From IMG/VR virus record IMGVR_UViG_3300016657_000039, positions 1-39,304 of that record: a stretch of 39,304 nt of DNA; one strand, given 5' to 3'. Source of the DNA: a virus. Taxonomy: Duplodnaviria; Caudoviricetes. The position numbers and the translations under genes were made by a program. Each line of letters starts with the position of its first letter. Position 1 is the first letter of the stretch. Positions 1-39,304 of this stretch are shown here, in pieces. The notes beneath the pieces are model-generated. The model was not told the DNA's origin. It did no database searches and saw nothing but the letters and a program-made list of their open reading frames with translations.

Positions 1-7
1 AATAATT

Positions 8-226
8 ATGATTAAAGAAAAGTACCAAAAAATTATTTTTAAAGAATGGTTTAGAGTTTCACTATCTGAACAACTCGGAATAAAAGAAATGAGATTGATT
101 GACTATCTTTCAAAAGACTTTGAAACTGCTAAAAAACATAAAAAAGAAGTTGAAGAGTTTATTGAAAAATGGATAGAATTTGAAAATAAAGTTAAACAAA
201 TTAAAGTTGAGTATTTTAATGTTTAA
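8..226 (+). CDS. Hypothetical protein (72 aa)
   Basis: ORF with AATAATTATG start context; its TAA overlaps the TAAC of the first attC-like hairpin. Confidence 0.75.
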   Translation: MIKEKYQKIIFKEWFRVSLSEQLGIKEMRLIDYLSKDFETAKKHKKEVEEFIEKWIEFENKVKQIKVEYFNV

Positions 227-352
227 CGTTTTGCCCGCTTGGTGAAGTGGCAAAAAAGTACACAAAAACATTCCTGTTATCATGAATTAAAACTGATGCA
301 AAACAAATTTTAAATTTAGCCGATATGTTGCCATTGCACCAAACGGCTGTTA
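224..352 (+). repeat. attC-like hairpin element H1
   Basis: TAAC-GTTTT-GCCCGCTTGGTGAAGTGGCAA...TTGCCATTGCACCAAACGGC-T-GTTA imperfect inverted repeat. Confidence 0.8.
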
Positions 353-367
353 TAAGTAGCTTTTATT

Positions 368-589
368 ATGGAAAAGAAAAAAAACGATTGTTATAATTGT
401 ATATTTAGAGAAAAAATTATTGGTGATGCACACTCAAAATGCAATAACGAATGGAGCAAAGAAGATTTTAAAGGTAAAACAAAAACATTAACGGCAACTT
501 GGAATCAATGGTCTATGGGATTCCCTAATAACTTTGACCCACATTGGATTAAAAAATGTAGTAAATTTTCTGAACGCAATGTTGAGTAA
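368..589 (+). CDS. Cassette 1 ORF, small Cys-rich hypothetical protein
   Basis: CxxC...HxxC...C pattern; flanked by inverted repeats GTTATAAGTAGC (349-360) / GTTACTTATAAC (591-602). Confidence 0.8.
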   Translation: MEKKKNDCYNCIFREKIIGDAHSKCNNEWSKEDFKGKTKTLTATWNQWSMGFPNNFDPHWIKKCSKFSERNVE

Positions 590-598
590 AGTTACTTA

Positions 599-713
599 TA
601 ACGTTTTGCAACTTGTATAAGTGGCGTTTACTAAACCTAAACACAACAAAAAAAAGAATATTAACTAACTATCTGACACAAACTAAACCAGCCATTTATA
701 CAAATTGCTGTTA
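599..713 (+). repeat. attC-like hairpin element H2
   Basis: TAAC-GTTTT-GCAACTTGTATAAGTGGC...GCCATTTATACAAATTGC-T-GTTA. Confidence 0.8.
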
Positions 714-747
714 TAAGAAGTAGCGGATATAAACACAGAAAGTAATT

Positions 748-957
748 ATGAAAACACATACAGTAGATTTAGAAGCATTAAGAGAATGGCAAAGTGAAGA
801 AAAAGTAATTTTTGCAAGTAGTACAAAAGAAAACAAACAACTTTATTGCACATTAAGAGGGAGTTATGAAGTTTGGCATAAAAAAGAAAAAGTTTTAGAA
901 ACAATGCAACAATTTACAGCAGTTGAAAAATATAATTCAATTGAAGCAGATTCGTAG
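748..957 (+). CDS. Cassette 2 ORF, hypothetical protein
   Basis: ORF flanked by GTTATAAGAAGTAGC (710-724) / GCTATTTCTTATAAC (957-971). Confidence 0.8.
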   Translation: MKTHTVDLEALREWQSEEKVIFASSTKENKQLYCTLRGSYEVWHKKEKVLETMQQFTAVEKYNSIEADS

Positions 958-967
958 CTATTTCTTA

Positions 968-1093
968 TAACGTATCGTGGCTTGTAGCAGTGGGGGATTT
1001 TGAAAAACTACTGCTCAATTTACCACAAAAGCTGATTAGAAGTACACAGCTCAAAATATGCACTTCAACCCCTATTGCTACAAACCCTTGTTA
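968..1093 (+). repeat. attC-like hairpin element H3
   Basis: TAAC-GTATC-GTGGCTTGTAGCAGTGGGGG...CCCCTATTGCTACAAACCCT-T-GTTA. Confidence 0.8.
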
Positions 1094-1143
1094 GCGGTAG
1101 TACGGTTTAATTTACGAGGGATTAAATTAAAAGAAAGTACATT

Positions 1144-1629
1144 ATGTTAGTTAATTTAACGCCAATTGAAGCTGAAATAAAAAGAAGGAGTAATATAGCA
1201 AAAGAAAACAATTTTGAATATACACCACAATCAGACACAAAATACATTCAAGAAGTTGGAATTTATCAAAGTAGTTTTCCTTTTAATTTTCCAGAAGATG
1301 AATTTGAAGAATTGAAGAAATTAAATTGGGATGATAGATATAAAATATTCCCTACTTATGAAAAAATTACTTACGGAGTAGCTGATAATATTGAGCAAAT
1401 AAAAGAATACTACAAAGAGGAAGTAGCTGATACTGAAAAAAAATATTGTTTAGCATTGACACCTGTTTGGCAAGAAAAAGAAAATAAAGGTAAGGGTGGT
1501 GGCTGGAGATGGCATAAGTGGGGTGAGTATATAGGTAAATTAAACCCACAATGTGAATATTTAGATGATGAAGATTTTGGCGATGATTTTCAGTATGTAA
1601 TCACATTTACTTTGTTTGCAGTCAAGTAG
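1144..1629 (+). CDS. Cassette 3 ORF, hypothetical protein with GGGWRWHKWGEYIG motif
   Basis: 161 aa ORF flanked by GTTAGCGGTAGTAC (1090-1103) / GTATTACCGCTAAC (1629-1642). Confidence 0.85.
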   Translation: MLVNLTPIEAEIKRRSNIAKENNFEYTPQSDTKYIQEVGIYQSSFPFNFPEDEFEELKKLNWDDRYKIFPTYEKITYGVADNIEQIKEYYKEEVADTEKKYCLALTPVWQEKENKGKGGGWRWHKWGEYIGKLNPQCEYLDDEDFGDDFQYVITFTLFAVK

Positions 1630-1638
1630 TATTACCGC

Positions 1639-1701
1639 TAACGTATGTGGCTTTAATTCAGTTGCGTATTGTCGATACGCAATTGATTAAAACCACTGTT
1701 A
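1639..1701 (+). repeat. attC-like hairpin element H4 (minimal, 63 bp)
   Basis: TAAC-GTAT-GTGGCTTTAATTCAGTTGCGTATTGTCGATACGCAATTGATTAAAACCAC-T-GTTA, almost fully self-complementary. Confidence 0.8.
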
Positions 1702-1735
1702 ACAAATGTATTTTTAAACACAAAATAAATAAATT

Positions 1736-1993
1736 ATGGAAAAACAAAAAACAGCAGTTGATTGGTTAATGGAAAACATTAGCTATGATAACGGATATGG
1801 ACAAAGAAATAACTCTTTTACAGAAAGTTTTGATTTATCAGATTTTTTTAAAAAAGCCAAAGAAATCGAAAAAGAACAAATAGAAAAATCTTTTAATGAC
1901 GGAGCATATTGGGAGCTTTATGGAAGTAATATAACTCAAATAGAAAGAGCTGAAAAATATTATAACGAAACTTATACACAAAGTTCGGAATAA
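1736..1993 (+). CDS. Cassette 4 ORF, phage-type hypothetical protein (KTAVDWL...AKEIEKEQI)
   Basis: ORF flanked by GTTAACAAATGTATT (1698-1712) / AATATATTTGTTAAC (1992-2006). Confidence 0.8.
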   Translation: MEKQKTAVDWLMENISYDNGYGQRNNSFTESFDLSDFFKKAKEIEKEQIEKSFNDGAYWELYGSNITQIERAEKYYNETYTQSSE

Positions 1994-2029
1994 TATATTT
2001 GTTAACTACTCGATAACCGCAACTAAATT

Positions 2030-2257
2030 ATGCAACTACCTAAAAATAAAACAATTACAACTACTTTTAAAATTTTTGATTTTATAGTATGTTTAAACGA
2101 TGGTTTTTTATATCAGTTATCGCATTGCCCTAAAAAGCGTACTAAAGTATTTCGTAAATTAACTTATAACGAAAAAAGAAATGCTTATTATATAAATGGT
2201 CAATTAGTAAGTAAAAATAGATTAAAGAAATTAGCAATAAAAAACCCCTCTATATAA
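2030..2257 (+). CDS. Small basic hypothetical protein immediately after the cassette array
   Basis: 75 aa K/R-rich ORF with AAATTATG start. Confidence 0.7.
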   Translation: MQLPKNKTITTTFKIFDFIVCLNDGFLYQLSHCPKKRTKVFRKLTYNEKRNAYYINGQLVSKNRLKKLAIKNPSI

Positions 2258-2270
2258 GTGGGGTTTTGTT
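2239..2270. terminator. Bidirectional intrinsic terminator at the convergence of plus and minus genes
   Basis: AAAAAACCCC-loop-GGGGTTTT hairpin overlapping both stop codons. Confidence 0.6.
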
Positions 2271-2693
2271 TTTAAATAACTTTTTAATTAATTCTATTGG
2301 GTTAAAACTTCTATATAACCACATTGCAATTAATAGTATTAAAATAAGATATAAGATGTATTTAAACGCAATATTTAATAAGTAATTATAATCAACTTCT
2401 TTGCTTTCTTTTTCTTGTTTTAAATCCACTTTAATTGAGCCATTATCTTTTTCTTTTACTACTTCAGTTCTATAGTGGTTTTCTATTATAGTATTTACTA
2501 TTGTATCTTTTCCTATTATCATAGGTTTTTGTGGGTCAAAAGGTTTTAAAGTAAACTCCCCACTTGTTAAACTAAACTCTTTGTCTTTGTTGTAAACGCT
2601 ATCTTTTTTAATTTCAGTTTCTTCACTTGACTTTTTTACAGTGCCGCAACCTATTAATAAGATTGCGGTTAATATTAATGCTGTTTTTTTCAT
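2250..2693 (-). CDS. Lipoprotein with C-terminal transmembrane helix, candidate unimolecular spanin
   Basis: MKKTALILTAILLIG-C lipobox; C-terminal hydrophobic YILYLILILLIAMWLY; near the endolysin. Confidence 0.6.
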   Translation of the reverse strand: MKKTALILTAILLIGCGTVKKSSEETEIKKDSVYNKDKEFSLTSGEFTLKPFDPQKPMIIGKDTIVNTIIENHYRTEVVKEKDNGSIKVDLKQEKESKEVDYNYLLNIAFKYILYLILILLIAMWLYRSFNPIELIKKLFKNKTPLI

Positions 2694-3718
2694 TATACAA
2701 TTTTATAGTTTATAATTCTAATGTTTTTTAATTCGTAATTACCATCTTTACTAACTTTAACGTGTGCAAATCCGTGATTATAATTATTGTATGGTGCATA
2801 TTCTGGTTCTAAACCACATAAACAACCAGTTGACCACGTTGTTGTAACTTCTCCAGATAATGTCTTTTCTGTATGTTCACTTGTTCTGTGGTGGTGTCCT
2901 ACTATACAACTTTCTTTAGCTTTCATAAATAAACCTCTTGCTGGGTTAACTGGTGGCGCAAATCCTCCGAACCATTCGTGACCATGTAATATTGGTAATT
3001 TACCAGCTAAAGCCATTTGTTTATCTTTAACCAAAGTAACTCCAAATTCTCTGAATCTTAAAAGTTGCTCAAGTTTAAAATCGTCAATTCCTAAAAGTTC
3101 AGGAGCTTTAATCATTAAATAATCTTCATATCTTTTTTCGTGGTTTCCTATCTTATAGTAAATAGGACAATTAAAAAGTTCTTTTAGTTGTTTTAAAAAA
3201 CTTCTAACCATTTCCAACTCTCCAGCAATATCTCTTAATCTTCTATTTTTTGTAAATCTTGAACATTGATAAAAGTCAGCAATATCTCCGTTTAAATAAA
3301 TAGCGTTAACATTATTTTCTAAACCATAATTTAAAGCTAATTCTAATGCTTTGTTATCTTGATAAGGAAAATGTATGTCTGATAAAATTAAAATGTTATT
3401 TTGTCCTTTAGGAATAATAAAAGGCTCACATTTTTCATAGTCGCTTTCTGGCAAGTCAATTTTTTTTGACATAAATTGTTTTTTAGTTTCTTCAGAACGT
3501 TCTGAAACTCTTATTACAGTTGAATTTTTACCTTTCATTTCGCCTCTGTAACGCCTTACATTTGAACGTACAGCGTCTACTGAACTAAAATCTAAAGAAT
3601 GTTTTTCAAAAATCATTCTTGAAATAGCCATTGTAGATGCTTTAGGAAATTTAGCAAGATATTCAATAATAATTTCTTTTTTGTAAGTTGCGGAGTTTTG
3701 GTTTCCTTTTTTACTCAT
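2693..3718 (-). CDS. Calcineurin-like metallophosphoesterase with N-terminal extension
   Basis: Motifs SDIH, GDIAD, GNHE, HGH, GHHH. Confidence 0.88.
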   Translation of the reverse strand: MSKKGNQNSATYKKEIIIEYLAKFPKASTMAISRMIFEKHSLDFSSVDAVRSNVRRYRGEMKGKNSTVIRVSERSEETKKQFMSKKIDLPESDYEKCEPFIIPKGQNNILILSDIHFPYQDNKALELALNYGLENNVNAIYLNGDIADFYQCSRFTKNRRLRDIAGELEMVRSFLKQLKELFNCPIYYKIGNHEKRYEDYLMIKAPELLGIDDFKLEQLLRFREFGVTLVKDKQMALAGKLPILHGHEWFGGFAPPVNPARGLFMKAKESCIVGHHHRTSEHTEKTLSGEVTTTWSTGCLCGLEPEYAPYNNYNHGFAHVKVSKDGNYELKNIRIINYKIV

Positions 3719-3744
3719 AATTATTTAGTTTAGAATTATTTAAA

Positions 3745-3752
3745 CAAATTTA
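3745..3752 (-). promoter_or_regulatory. Bacteroidota -7 promoter box for the phosphoesterase
   Basis: TAAATTTG on the minus strand ~27 nt upstream of the ATG. Confidence 0.55.
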
Positions 3753-3784
3753 GTAAAAAAAGTTTACAATTAACAAAAAATCAT

Positions 3785-3910
3785 TATATTTGTGAATGTA
3801 ATCACTGAAAAGTATATAAATTTGGTGAATATAAAATTGAGTTAGTTTAGTTTTTTCATAATTGTTTAGTTTTGGTAAGAAAAGCGATATTTTTTAAGTA
3901 TCGCTTTTTT
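3785..3910 (+). ncRNA. Candidate ~110 nt sRNA (TATATTTG promoter, no ORF, intrinsic terminator)
   Basis: -7 box at 3785-3792; AAAAGCGATA/TATCGCTTTTTT terminator at 3880-3910; internal TAGTTTTTTCATAATT motif. Confidence 0.5.
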
Positions 3911-3921
3911 ATTTAAAAAAG

Positions 3922-3953
3922 TTTGTGTAATTAAAAAATTATGTTTAATATTG
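3922..3953 (+). promoter_or_regulatory. Promoter of the leader/tRNA operon
   Basis: TTTG (3922-3925), 20 nt spacer, TAATATTG (3946-3953, one mismatch to TAnnTTTG); predicted start near the ATG at 3958 (leaderless). Confidence 0.55.
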
Positions 3954-3957
3954 CAAT

Positions 3958-4026
3958 ATGAAATTTACAAAAACAAATACTCAGCATCTTCCGCAACCTA
4001 TTTTAATGGGTGGTATTGGTGTATAG
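3958..4026 (+). CDS. Putative attenuator leader peptide MKFTKTNTQHLPQPILMGGIGV
   Basis: 22 codons; codons 9-14 are CAG CAT CTT CCG CAA CCT; sits between the promoter and a terminator in front of the tRNAs. Confidence 0.65.
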   Translation: MKFTKTNTQHLPQPILMGGIGV

Positions 4027-4051
4027 TATAGTTAAAATATATTTACAACTT

Positions 4052-4086
4052 AAAACCACTTATTAATTTAAGTGGTTTTTTTATTT
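4052..4086 (+). terminator. Attenuator-type intrinsic terminator directly before the first tRNA
   Basis: AAAACCACTTA-loop-TAAGTGGTTTT followed by TTTATTT. Confidence 0.75.
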
Positions 4087-4159
4087 CGAGTAGTGACAAA
4101 ATTGGTTACGCGCCCACCTTGGAAGTGGGAGATTGCAGGTTCGAGTCCTGCCTATTCGA
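4087..4159 (+). tRNA. tRNA-Pro(UGG), weak D-arm, A37
   Basis: Acceptor CGAGTAG/CTATTCG+A73; anticodon arm CCCAC-CTTGGAA-GTGGG; T-arm GCAGG-TTCGAGT-CCTGC. Confidence 0.85.
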
Positions 4160-4257
4160 CGGAGTATAGAAGTGTAAGTTCGAATCTTACTCATTTGCCT
4201 AAATAATGTTAAGACTTGCAAATGATGGTGTAATTGGGAGCACACTTTACGTGATAT
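4160..4257 (+). ncRNA. Circularly permuted tRNA-like element (3' half precedes 5' half)
   Basis: T-arm GTAAG-TTCGAAT-CTTAC + TCATTTGC (4174-4198), 19 nt linker, then GCAAATGA-TG-D-arm GTGT-AATTGGGA-GCAC-A-CTTTAC (4218-4250). Confidence 0.6.
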
Positions 4258-4330
4258 TACAAAATGATGTAATTGGTTAGCATAACAGACTTTGACTCTG
4301 TTTGTTTAGGTTCGAGTCCTAATTTTGTAA
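4258..4330 (+). tRNA. tRNA-Gln(UUG), A37
   Basis: Acceptor TACAAAA/TTTTGTA; anticodon arm ACAGA-CTTTGAC-TCTGT; T-arm TTAGG-TTCGAGT-CCTAA. Confidence 0.9.
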
Positions 4331-4338
4331 CTAAATAT

Positions 4339-4413
4339 GGTGTTATTGTGCTTAATGGTTAAGGCAGTTAGTCTGTGAAACTAATTATATCGGTTCGAAT
4401 CCGATATAACACC
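4339..4413 (+). tRNA. tRNA-His(GUG), A37
   Basis: G-1:C73 pair; acceptor GTGTTAT/ATAACAC; anticodon arm TTAGT-CTGTGAA-ACTAA; T-arm ATCGG-TTCGAAT-CCGAT. Confidence 0.9.
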
Positions 4414-4418
4414 CAATC

Positions 4419-4492
4419 GCTCCAATGGTGGAATGGAATACACAATGGCTTTAGAACCCATTTTTTTGCAAGTTCGAATCTTGCTTGGAGTA
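4419..4492 (+). tRNA. tRNA-Leu(UAG), no long variable arm, A37
   Basis: Acceptor GCTCCAA/TTGGAGT+A73; Leu-type D-arm GTGGAATGGAATACAC; loop TTTAGAA; T-arm GCAAG-TTCGAAT-CTTGC. Confidence 0.8.
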
Positions 4493-4497
4493 CAAAA

Positions 4498-4569
4498 TTC
4501 AGTATAGTTTAATGGATAAAATTTTTGACTACGAATCAAAAGATAGGAGTTCGAATCTCTTTACTGAAA
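4498..4569 (+). tRNA. tRNA-Arg(ACG), A37
   Basis: Acceptor TTCAGTA/TACTGAA; anticodon arm TTTGA-CTACGAA-TCAAA; T-loop TTCGAAT. Confidence 0.9.
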
Positions 4570-4570
4570 C

Positions 4571-4603
4571 AAAAACCGCACTATTAATTTAGAGCGGTTT
4601 TTT
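4571..4603. terminator. Bidirectional terminator between the tRNA operon and the endolysin
   Basis: AAAAACCGC...GCGGTTTTTT. Confidence 0.7.
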
Positions 4604-4647
4604 TATAAGTATTAAAACTTATATTTGTTATTTATAAGTGATTGAAC

Positions 4648-5058
4648 TTATATATTTTTATATTCTGTCTTTGCATCAAAACTTGGACATGCTTTTGCAA
4701 CTCCTTTAAAATCTCTATGACCTTGAACTATAGCGTTAGGAAATTGTTTTTTAGCTTGTTTTATTAGATATAAAAGACTTTCTTTTTGTTTTGGAGTTCT
4801 TGTGTCTTTTGGATTTCCTTTTCCGTCTACACCACCAATATAACTAAAATGTATTGATTCAGAATTATATCCTTTAACTCCATTTGTTACTTGTTCATAG
4901 TTTGCTAATTCGTGAATAATTCCGTTTGAATCTATTAACCTATGATAACCTACAGATTTCCATTTTAAAACATTTTTCCAATAGTTTAAAATAGATTCTT
5001 TTGTTGCGTTCGGTTGTGATGCTGTGCAATGTATTACGATATATTTTATTTCTCTCAT
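4648..5058 (-). CDS. Endolysin, N-acetylmuramoyl-L-alanine amidase (T7 lysozyme/Amidase_2 type)
   Basis: IVIHCTA, GYH, GHRDF...KACPSFD zinc-amidase motifs. Confidence 0.92.
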   Translation of the reverse strand: MREIKYIVIHCTASQPNATKESILNYWKNVLKWKSVGYHRLIDSNGIIHELANYEQVTNGVKGYNSESIHFSYIGGVDGKGNPKDTRTPKQKESLLYLIKQAKKQFPNAIVQGHRDFKGVAKACPSFDAKTEYKNI

Positions 5059-5157
5059 AATTGTTACTTTTAACTTTTATTATATTTTTTCTGTATCAAA
5101 TGTTAAAATTTTATTTTTTAACGTGTTTTTATATTACAATATCTTATCGTTTTTGAA

Positions 5158-5382
5158 TTATTTACAGGCTTTTTTTGCTCTTTCTTTTAAGTATAAATGT
5201 ATTCTTGTAGCTATTATTTTACCAAAATAACCGCAAGCACCCCCAATTATACCAAAAGAAATTACTTTAAATAATTCCATAATATTCTCAACAAATAAAT
5301 GATTCTGAAAATATGCTAATACTCCAGCTCCAGCTCCAGAAATTACTGAAAAAACAGGATTGTGATGTGTATGACTACTCAT
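5158..5382 (-). CDS. Small membrane protein, holin candidate
   Basis: Two hydrophobic segments, basic C-terminus, directly upstream of the endolysin. Confidence 0.55.
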   Translation of the reverse strand: MSSHTHHNPVFSVISGAGAGVLAYFQNHLFVENIMELFKVISFGIIGGACGYFGKIIATRIHLYLKERAKKACK

Positions 5383-28811: not shown

Positions 28812-28941
28812 TAACAGCGGTTTGTTTCAAGTGGCGGTTTAGTGATATTCCGAAAACGCCGTTGTAAAATTTAATAATTAGTTTATATTTGTGTTGGCTT
28901 GGTGCTGAAATCGCCACCTGAAAACAAGCCACAAAACGTTA
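28812..28941 (-). repeat. Solo attC-like hairpin element H5
   Basis: Minus strand TAAC-GTTTT-GTGGCTTGTTTTCAGGTGGCG...CGCCACTTGAAACAAACCGC-T-GTTA, same architecture as H1-H4. Confidence 0.8.
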
Positions 28942-35227: not shown

Positions 35228-35917
35228 TTAAAATAGTTTAGTTTGTGATACGTGGTTTTTAATTCTTTGCACTCCTTTGTCAAAATATTCCTTATCCAAT
35301 TCGCAACCTGTCAGCTCAAAGCTATAATCGTGGCAAGCAATCGCTATTGACATCGAGCCTAAGTGAGTGTCTAAAATTTTGTCGCCTTGTTTGGCGTATT
35401 TGTCTAAAATCCATTTGTATAATGCAACTGGCTTTTGTGTTGGGTGCAATCTACTTCCGTTGTTATTAGCGTCTGCTAAAGCCTCGCCTCTTGAAAAATC
35501 AAAAATTCTTAATGCTTTTTCTGTTTCAGAATACCAAGCTAACTCACCATCGGCTAAACTAAATTCTCTTTGTTTTTTATTCCAAATTATAAAAGAATTA
35601 CTATATTTCCAAATAAAAGGAAAATAATTACCACCCCATATTATTTGTTTCTTACTTACTCTAAATAATTCTTTAAAATATTCATCACTTGGTATTTCGT
35701 TATCCCATTCAGTTTCTTTATATACTTTCCAACCTCTACCACTTTTTGTTTTACCATTTGCCTCTAATCTTCTTTTTCCTGCTTCGTTTTGTTTTTTATC
35801 TGCATTTATTCCATAAGGAGGGTCGCAAATTGCAAGGTCGTAAAAGTTATCAGGAGTTCTTTTTAGCAACTCCATGCAATCTTCATTAGTTATTGTTATT
35901 TTATCTGTTATTTCCAT
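35228..35917 (-). CDS. DNA N6-adenine/N4-cytosine methyltransferase (beta class)
   Basis: DPPY; HPTQKP; ILDTHLGS; GCELD. Confidence 0.9.
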   Translation of the reverse strand: MEITDKITITNEDCMELLKRTPDNFYDLAICDPPYGINADKKQNEAGKRRLEANGKTKSGRGWKVYKETEWDNEIPSDEYFKELFRVSKKQIIWGGNYFPFIWKYSNSFIIWNKKQREFSLADGELAWYSETEKALRIFDFSRGEALADANNNGSRLHPTQKPVALYKWILDKYAKQGDKILDTHLGSMSIAIACHDYSFELTGCELDKEYFDKGVQRIKNHVSQTKLF

Positions 35918-36198: not shown

Positions 36199-36876
36199 TT
36201 AAAATAATTCAATTTGTTTTTCGTTTTGTTTTTTTGTTATTCCTAAATATGTTTCAAAAATTGTTCTTCCTGCTTCATAGTCTACTAAATTACGTGCCAT
36301 TTTAACAATACTTTGTTTTCCTTTGTATTTATTAAAATTATAATCGTGAAATTTACATAAAGATTCTAATTCGTTTTTTTCTTGTGAAATTTTAAATCCT
36401 CTATCTTTAACATCGTTTGGTAAATTAAAGTTAGTCCAATACAAATGCCTACCTCTTTTTAAAGCTGGTATTAATGGTTCGTAATATGGTATAACATTTT
36501 CAACTACAAATTTTCCGCTTCTGTAATAATGTTGTAAAAACAAAATTTCTTCATAAAGTTTCATATCTGGATAAACAGGTTGTGTAGTTGTATCATAATT
36601 AGAACTATTCCAATATCTTGCTCTAGAATGACTTGGACAAGGCGGAGAACTCCAAATAAAATCAAACTCTTTGTAATGTTCAATTAAATATTGATGAGCA
36701 TCTTCAATTATTACTTTATCATTTGAAAAACGCTCTTGATAAAGTTTTGCGGCTTCTTCGTCTAATTCAACAGCAGTAACTTCAATTTCAATATTAGCTT
36801 CTTTGGCTACTTCATCCCATTTATACCTGTTACCTCCTAAACAAGCATATAAATTTAATATTTTTATTGTTTTCAT
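36199..36876 (-). CDS. C5-cytosine DNA methyltransferase-like protein (short)
   Basis: LNLYACLGG (motif I variant); SPPC; ENV; RH. Confidence 0.8.
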   Translation of the reverse strand: MKTIKILNLYACLGGNRYKWDEVAKEANIEIEVTAVELDEEAAKLYQERFSNDKVIIEDAHQYLIEHYKEFDFIWSSPPCPSHSRARYWNSSNYDTTTQPVYPDMKLYEEILFLQHYYRSGKFVVENVIPYYEPLIPALKRGRHLYWTNFNLPNDVKDRGFKISQEKNELESLCKFHDYNFNKYKGKQSIVKMARNLVDYEAGRTIFETYLGITKKQNEKQIELF

Positions 36877-38895: not shown

Positions 38896-39008
38896 CAAAG
38901 ATACAATAACTTTTTTAATTTACAAGTTTAATTTGTAAAATATTATAATTTATATTAATTCTAAATTACGTTATTAATTTGCAAAGTATAAAATTAATTG
39001 TATATTTG
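38896..39008. promoter_or_regulatory. Divergent promoter pair
   Basis: Minus strand TATCTTTG (38896-38903); plus strand TTTG (38978-38981)-19 nt-TATATTTG (39001-39008), matching the Bacteroidota consensus. Confidence 0.7.
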
Positions 39009-39036
39009 CATACGTTAAATACTAAAATTCATAATT

Positions 39037-39304
39037 ATGAAAAAACTTTCGATTTACAACACTTACGTAGTAATGGAATCACAAGAACAATGTGATAGAA
39101 TGAAACAACTTTGTATTGATAATTGGTTGCCTATTTGGGAAGCAGATTTTGCCTTTGATTTTGATAATGTATATAATAATGATTGCTTTAGTTATGCTAA
39201 AGATACAGAAGAATTTTTTATTTATCCAATATCAGGTAATGAAGAAGAGATTATCAATAAAATTAAAGTAACAGAACAAGAATTTATTGAACTATTAAAA
39301 ACTA
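39037..39304 (+). CDS. Hypothetical protein (90 aa if joined to window positions 1-5)
   Basis: Open frame MKKLSIYNTYVV...ELLKT-K-stop, with the last codons ACT A|AA TAA spanning the junction. Confidence 0.75.
   Translation, partial: MKKLSIYNTYVVMESQEQCDRMKQLCIDNWLPIWEADFAFDFDNVYNNDCFSYAKDTEEFFIYPISGNEEEIINKIKVTEQEFIELLKT

Follow-up and report, generated by a model that had tools for sequence, protein, structure and literature searches.

Integrons are built from an integrase (IntI), a docking site (attI) and cassette sites (attC), the latter being recombined as a folded bottom strand (PMC5027507, PMC2727003, PMC4889954; VchIntIA structure, PDB 2a3v), and the choice of the attC strand has been attributed to extrahelical bases, the spacer and the tip (PMC5027507, PMC2727003). 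The available portions of these articles contain no match for "wobble" in PMC5027507 and none for "G-T" in PMC2727003. Recombinases located near attC but devoid of the IntI insertion were judged not to be IntI in a survey whose available text has no match for "Bacteroid" (PMC4889954), and the insertion was described as "not fully conserved" in an integron-like subgroup (PMC8138268, as far as available). According to the accessible part of the rAID-1 preprint, a XerD-like recombinase, co-directional genes and integron-like repeats occur together in 226 of 423 Bacteroidales genomes, membership being set by a recombinase more than 44% identical to BF9343_RS08045 (bioRxiv 10.1101/471110). The Polaribacter phage P12002L has been called a CALIN, and its attC1 was not recombined by IntI1 (PMC9892861, available text). 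Cultured Flavobacterium phages were described in PMC7077304, the available part of which has no match for cassette, integron or integrase; PMC2864571 (with supplements), PMC9723704 and PMC11523902, each available in part, were also considered. The literature searched, mostly outside subscription papers and bioRxiv supplements, gave no description of the G-T sites presented here, and in the portions of it that were accessible the earlier printed record consists of partial sightings only, namely rAID-1 and the Polaribacter phage CALIN.

The window analyzed here is the whole 39.3-kb record (39,304 nt) of a Flavobacterium-type phage (CheckV 100%), with annotated terminase, capsid, tape-measure and primase/helicase genes among its 53 ORFs. 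No integrase was annotated among these ORFs, and a PF00589 profile search of the phage gave no match at E 10, i.e., no tyrosine recombinase; the profile was also without a match in five relatives, two of them near complete, hence a recombinase serving these phages would have to act in trans. Four hairpins alternate with four ORFs and a fifth, solo hairpin lies on the minus strand elsewhere (Table 1), site H2 matching 52 cultured-phage records, all of them Flavobacterium phages. Cargo ORFs 1, 2 and 4 had no match in PHROG, Pfam or PADLOC, none of the four ORFs had a tblastn relative among the fetched loci, and an Rfam search of positions 1-5200 returned tRNAs and chance matches only. Five tRNA genes are clustered at 4087-4569 on the plus strand, the two methyltransferase genes of the window (35228-35917 and 36199-36876) are outside any detected site, and when the contig ends are joined (39001-39304 plus 1-10) the last ORF closes cleanly at 90 aa. 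A TAnnTTTG motif at 39001, which we take to be a Bacteroidota promoter-like motif, would drive the array, and would therefore leave the docking site at its promoter-distal end, unlike in integrons. A degenerate "cassette 0" running from 39014 across the contig ends was rejected (8/10, AT-rich, no G11, not clearly repeated in relatives).

Table 1. Cassette array, docking site and solo hairpin in the window (numbered from its first nucleotide).
Feature	Position	Strand	Remarks
Hairpin H1	224..352	+	129 nt; heads cassette 1; inner G-T with T334
Cargo ORF 1	368..589	+	73 aa; outer pair G359/T592
Hairpin H2	599..713	+	115 nt; 78-88% similar to cultured Flavobacterium phage sites; T695
Cargo ORF 2	748..957	+	69 aa; outer pair G720/T961
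Hairpin H3	968..1093	+	126 nt; T1075
Cargo ORF 3	1144..1629	+	161 aa; PHROG 18298 (unknown function); outer pair G1100/T1632
Hairpin H4	1639..1701	+	63 nt; 5' arm with one additional base; T1683
Cargo ORF 4	1736..1993	+	85 aa; outer pair G1708/T1996
Docking (attI-like) site	1996..2022	+	T-N6-TAA box, 7-nt spacer, N-T-W-N6-A box; no hairpin
Conserved phage gene	2030..2257	+	anchors docking site in relatives; not a cassette
Solo hairpin H5	28812..28941	-	directly after NinB-like gene; G11 present

Each ORF block (4/4) is bounded by ends that pair with one another over 14-15 bp, apart from a single mismatch. The initial annotation had singled out this mismatch, a G opposite T at position 11 from the G of GTT, as invariant, and it is indeed the sole mismatch in all four cassettes, over 15 bp in cassettes 1, 2 and 4 and over 14 bp in cassette 3. 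When the whole window was searched without bias for 15-nt GTT..AAC end pairs, allowing one mismatch, three pairs were obtained, all mismatched at position 11, and the solo site H5 (28941-28812, minus strand) carries G11 as had been noticed, with no cognate end found for it within 4 kb (best 7/10). The mismatch positions did not turn out to be random in larger alignments. Pattern scans blind to the tested positions gave at least 126 and at least 120 viral loci and at least 130 genome loci, to which 21 further loci were added from relatives of the phage. The outer-stem set was made of neighbouring sites whose ends match at five of the six positions 5-10, which are therefore selected positions, and comprised, among the matches listed, 119 cassettes from 58 loci of other phages and Bacteroidota genomes. 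Position 11 is a Watson-Crick pair in none of these 119 listed cassettes (103 G-T, 14 G after a 1-nt bulge, 2 other), while the unselected positions 12-15 are paired in 85% as compared to 39% with shuffled partners; a perfect pair at position 11 occurs in one of 22 cultured-phage cassettes. Considering the single sites among the matches listed, left position 11 is T in 352 of 378 and right position 11 is G in 310 of 378, counts that are not independent events, as the sequences share descent. The "code" consists of a T and a G, each of them conserved, in mirror positions, and it shows as invariance rather than as covariation.

A second invariant, absent from the initial annotation, lies in the hairpins, where arm position 14 is a G-T pair in all five cases (5/5) in the window. 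A detector taking no account of arm positions 5 and 14 gave, among the matches listed, 380 distinct hairpins, 365 of them with the same pair; a gapped test covering all 260 listed first-pattern matches, 199 of them hairpin-like, gave G-T at position 14 in 186/199 and C:A in 53/199, and in eight cultured phages G-T was present in 28 of 29 hairpins. The ungapped detector recovered three of the five window sites, and no site in 10 block-shuffled windows. The C:A mismatch, also described as fixed, is constant at arm position 5 in the window (5/5) and nearly so in cultured close relatives (26/29), but among the matches listed it occurs in 140 of 380 sites and, in the gapped test, in 32/99 and 21/100. 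The listed sites without C:A, among the 380 hairpins, mostly have a Watson-Crick pair at arm position 5; C:A is typical of the lineage of this phage and not of the whole site family, and in our reading it arises where the inner box ends in an A facing C, one of four options. The asymmetric bulge next to the core keeps its single nucleotide on the 3' side, but the 5' spacer measures 4-6 nt (6 in H1) and not 4-5 as first given; in the family, the unpaired central spacer is 3-6 nt (mostly 5) vs. 1 nt among the matches listed. Sites of relatives, a set assembled without pattern selection, all (39 of 39) have G as the first spacer base and T as the only base of the 3' spacer, and these may constitute a third G-T. 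The suggestion that the mismatches resemble the extrahelical bases of attC is not supported, since they are opposed G-T pairs instead and, among the matches listed, 176 of 199 arms have no bulge, the commonest bulge position being seen in just 9 of 199.

Along the G-T strand, the core C is preceded by T-N6-TAA in the 5' arm, and the 3' arm has the sequence T-N6-W-A-N, so that the two wobble T's, as we read them, occupy mirror positions of two boxes. The array ends in a hairpin-less duplex in which the two boxes recur with 7 nt between them. The same conserved gene is preceded, at 24-27 nt, by a cassette end in 20 of 21 relatives (19 by script, L259 by inspection), and the cassette ends at the docking sites of these relatives are of 18 different kinds. 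The aligned docking ends (14/22) have invariant T11, core and far A, and a nearly invariant inner T, the start region of the next gene possibly accounting in part for the far A; in host docking sites the N-T-W box is present in 11 of the 11 read and the far A in 7. The T is kept everywhere, paired with A in the docking duplex and facing G in the hairpin; the G in place of A leaves the complementary strand with A-C at both boxes. By analogy, the docking site may be likened to attI in its role.

The fact that T and G are each invariant independently of the partner, in the proportions given above for the 378 sites, and that the double-stranded docking site keeps the same T's, would suit an explanation where a recombinase acting on duplex or cruciform DNA contacts both bases as sequence, the mismatch being a by-product of unequal half-sites with no strand selection. 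Arm sequences, nonetheless, vary freely without loss of pairing, all four pair types being represented, and the arm mismatches other than those at positions 5 and 14 are polarized (G:T/T:G 312 vs. A:C/C:A 17 among the matches listed), as expected of a folded single strand; moreover, G faces T at both boxes where the docking duplex has A. A role of T and G limited to such contacts appears therefore unlikely, and strand choice by the two fixed G-T pairs is the reading we prefer.

The mobile unit is a hairpin with its downstream gene, with breakpoints within the TAAC core of the 5' arm, and the array terminates downstream in a fixed docking site without hairpin, at which cassettes end. Among the matches listed, 71 near-identical viral hairpin pairs include 27 that share the downstream flank only and none that share the upstream flank only; host-host pairs showed no flank linkage (2 vs. 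0 of 125, among the matches listed), and homologous cassette bodies were linked to their own hairpins in only three pairs, a weak signal. In the cultured sisters lillamy9-2 and 9-7, a 439-bp hairpin-plus-gene unit occupies an inner slot in one case and the docking site in the other, sniff9-1 contains this unit internally and sniff9-2 is without it, and mumin6-1 and mumin6-3 differ by a unit of 506 bp. In six pairwise comparisons of cultured phages, 15 of 18 junctions had an end located at a TAAC core. The match of cassette 4 of the window to other phages, cultured ones among them, runs exactly core to core, and a contig from another study (run X7) covers positions 1645-2006 with one difference, loose ends at 2006 running on in this run into another site-like start; joints in other contigs were not used (short sides of 20-32 nt, 88% likeness), and runs with small shares were left aside for habitat. 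In the run X7 copy of cassette 4 an A replaces the G of the 3' GTT at window position 1698, which fits with this G not being the crossover base. The cut would fall between A and C by analogy with attC, the data placing it within a shared stretch of 5-7 nt.

Between phages, the frame of a cassette, comprising its hairpin, leader, start codon and last 30-55 nt, shows 87-94% identity, and within matching frames the middle gene is unrelated or far diverged (1639-2006 vs. L471 and L464; 599-750 vs. L013). Cargo seems to have been swapped inside a reused frame, which offers a lead on cassette making. The array regions of Muminvirus and Lillamyvirus (L464-L471) contain 1-4 annotated DNA methyltransferase genes each.

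Arrays in host genomes follow a tyrosine recombinase with SAM_4 and catalytic domains, which scores 166-207 bits as compared to the TIGR02249 (integron-integrase) cut-off of 265 and, in the region of the IntI insertion, lacks about 43 residues present in VchIntIA. Strong matches to this enzyme were found in 28 of 101 and 65 of 151 genomes (two order-wide samples) and, among cultured phages, only in Polaribacter phage Leef_1 (1e-40). Of 40 loci with 1 kb or more of sequence downstream of the recombinase, 11 had a site there, always on one strand (0/40 on the other), and upstream of it in 2 of 47; 29 of the 40 loci had no site within about 1.5 kb, and neither had 11 of 20 longer regions, several of which are short contig ends. 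A loose docking motif occurs within 260 nt in 33/57 cases vs. 250/1516 background windows, and the first cassette end is located 75-136 nt past the recombinase stop in 11 of 12 loci with a site. The N-terminal extension of the enzyme matched Pfam HARP in one of 12 proteins (E 5.8e-5, 23 bits vs. a cut-off of 25), its top Foldseek match was the HARP domain of SMARCAL1 (E 0.75), and comparison with the UvsW N-terminus (Z 4.4, rmsd 2.4, 52 aligned) scored level with unrelated folds. The extension is at best weakly HARP-like, fold searches having failed to establish a HARP identity.

One recombinase-headed array (L486, 1394-4900) contains a Tdi1/GAD-like immunity gene, the only immunity-family match among 37 cargo proteins, and a short sister site type of about 45 nt with an ATTA core and without G11 in the two cassettes read, indicating that the recombinase family serves more than one site type. 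A further host array (L487) has 12 sites, 11 of them with near-identical arms and several with the same flanks, which suggests repeated copies of one small cassette. Sites of the same type occur on contigs labelled Spirochaetes, Brocadiaceae and Ignavibacteriaceae (L171, L149, and L172, respectively), MAG labels that may be wrong, and L171 also holds a 265-aa recombinase.

The G-T strand carries the genes in viral cassettes (74 vs. 4, 12 without gene), while in host cassettes the genes are on the other strand (0 vs. 23, 6 without gene), both among the matches listed, and the wobble strand follows site polarity rather than gene direction. The four viral cassettes with host-like orientation are 160-207 nt long, with frames of 40-46 codons that are probably not genes. 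Since G-U is a normal RNA pair and the G-T strand is the coding strand in phages, the hairpins might be thought to act as RNA, in mRNA as terminators or as translation or stability elements, or in an RNA route of cassette movement; the host genes lying off the G-T strand argue against such a role, as do the lack of a matching Rfam family (positions 1-5200), the indels mapping to the DNA core and the docking site, and the absence of an annotated reverse transcriptase among the 53 ORFs. We consider an RNA function highly improbable, and the hairpins are treated in the following as sites of DNA recombination.

Like integrons, the system has one-gene cassettes, AAC/GTT core triplets closing the hairpin, an unpaired central spacer, a variable tip, a hairpin-less docking site and a probable crossover in the AAC of the 5' arm, on one strand. 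Unlike integrons, it has fixed mirror G-T pairs instead of extrahelical bases, a cassette-end complementarity of 15 bp instead of 7, a recombinase with an N-terminal extension and without the IntI insertion and, in phages, a gene lying on the strand presumed to recombine and a docking site that follows the genes downstream. The integron order, with the gene upstream of the site on the top strand, was found in 23 of 23 host cassettes and is reversed in 74 of 78 phage cassettes, among the matches listed. The system works like an integron and falls outside the definition on two points.

The AAC/GTT core, the hairpin, the central bulge and the single gene per unit, together with the listing of a phage with similar-looking sites as CALIN (PMC9892861, available text), could lead to the view that these are unusual canonical attC sites recombined by an ordinary IntI. 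This is very unlikely, given the lack of a fixed extrahelical base and a neighbouring recombinase that is without the insertion and scores below the TIGR02249 cut-off. The family-like P12002L_attC1 was also the only site out of six that IntI1 did not recombine, a weak argument as it was cloned without its outer arms (PMC9892861, same text). The initial annotation had already proposed a site family distinct from attC and a recombinase other than IntI, and on these same features the proposal stands.

The host loci, and only these, resemble rAID-1 in the 5' XerD-like recombinase, the co-directional downstream genes and the repeated intergenic motifs "reminiscent of integrons" (bioRxiv 10.1101/471110), a layout of this kind being present in 9 of 20 regions of the order-level sample. 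The accessible part of the rAID-1 paper offers MEME motifs only, with no fold, crossover, strand rule or phage arrays; the single immunity-gene array found here (L486) has the shorter ATTA-core sites. Compared by its published description, as far as available, rAID-1 is probably kin to the host arrays. Phage CALINs share with our phages the integrase-less arrays with methyltransferase genes (PMC9892861, in part). By eye, P12002L has sites of the G-T family on the coding strand, the detector calling no site in it at threshold, and the available text of PMC9892861 treats them as ordinary attC. Two arrays of P12002L (L274; 29150-29260 and 37190-37315, minus strand) end in the same ~70-nt post-core sequence of docking type, which is, from that text, what was tested as attC2; we read attC2 as the opposite strand of a cassette end joined to docking-type sequence. 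The Flavo-1 RNA motif (RF01705) is also a repeated intergenic hairpin of Flavobacteria, but identity with it was rejected, the sequence being different and without an RF01705 match.

Overall, with a probability of about three in four, the repeats are recombination sites of an integron-like cassette system of Bacteroidota and their phages, in which the two fixed G-T pairs likely restrict a host tyrosine recombinase to one strand; strand choice by G-T, the circles and the enzyme are what we infer, and the folded single strand with strand choice that the initial annotation put forward is supported to this extent. The cassette would leave as a circle where the two 15-bp ends complete the outer stem, and the enzyme would read the T of each box and tolerate T-G, leaving unused the other strand, which has A-C mismatches without the T at the same places. 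The bulge of 4-6 vs. 1 nt may act as the equivalent of the attC central spacer. The putative enzyme is the recombinase of about 350-390 aa, without the IntI insertion, that heads the host arrays, and it would act in trans during infection. Since the G-T strand holds the phage genes and the opposite strand the host genes, expression of either pool would be confined to arrays of its own kind. In modelled circle junctions the G-T strand was more stable in 114 of 119 cases (88/90 and 26/29, among the matches listed), a gap that is not independent of the counts because it follows directly from G-T vs. A-C.

A broader picture can be drawn more tentatively, and we lean slightly against it at present. 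This would be a second, separately built single-strand system, with strand choice placed in two symmetric G-T wobbles and an insertion-less recombinase equipped with a HARP-like junction-binding domain, where lytic phages use a docking site of their own to exploit the host enzyme and assemble cassettes in reverse, keeping phage and host gene pools apart, and where existing frames receive new cargo.

The ability of integrons to recombine folded strands is ascribed to extrahelical bases and the IntI insertion, and integron surveys have been built on both (PMC4889954, available text). If our reading is true, cassette shuffling without either feature would have been missed by survey tools across a large phylum and its phages, and strand choice would obey a simpler rule, within reach of mutation at just two point positions. 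Muminvirus and Lillamyvirus on Flavobacterium LMO6/LMO9 are cultured pairs that already show cassette loss and movement and, as differences in methyltransferase genes were linked to plating efficiency (PMC7077304, in its available part), both mechanism and benefit would be directly testable. If frames are indeed reused with new cargo, these arrays would also give a view on how cassettes are made.
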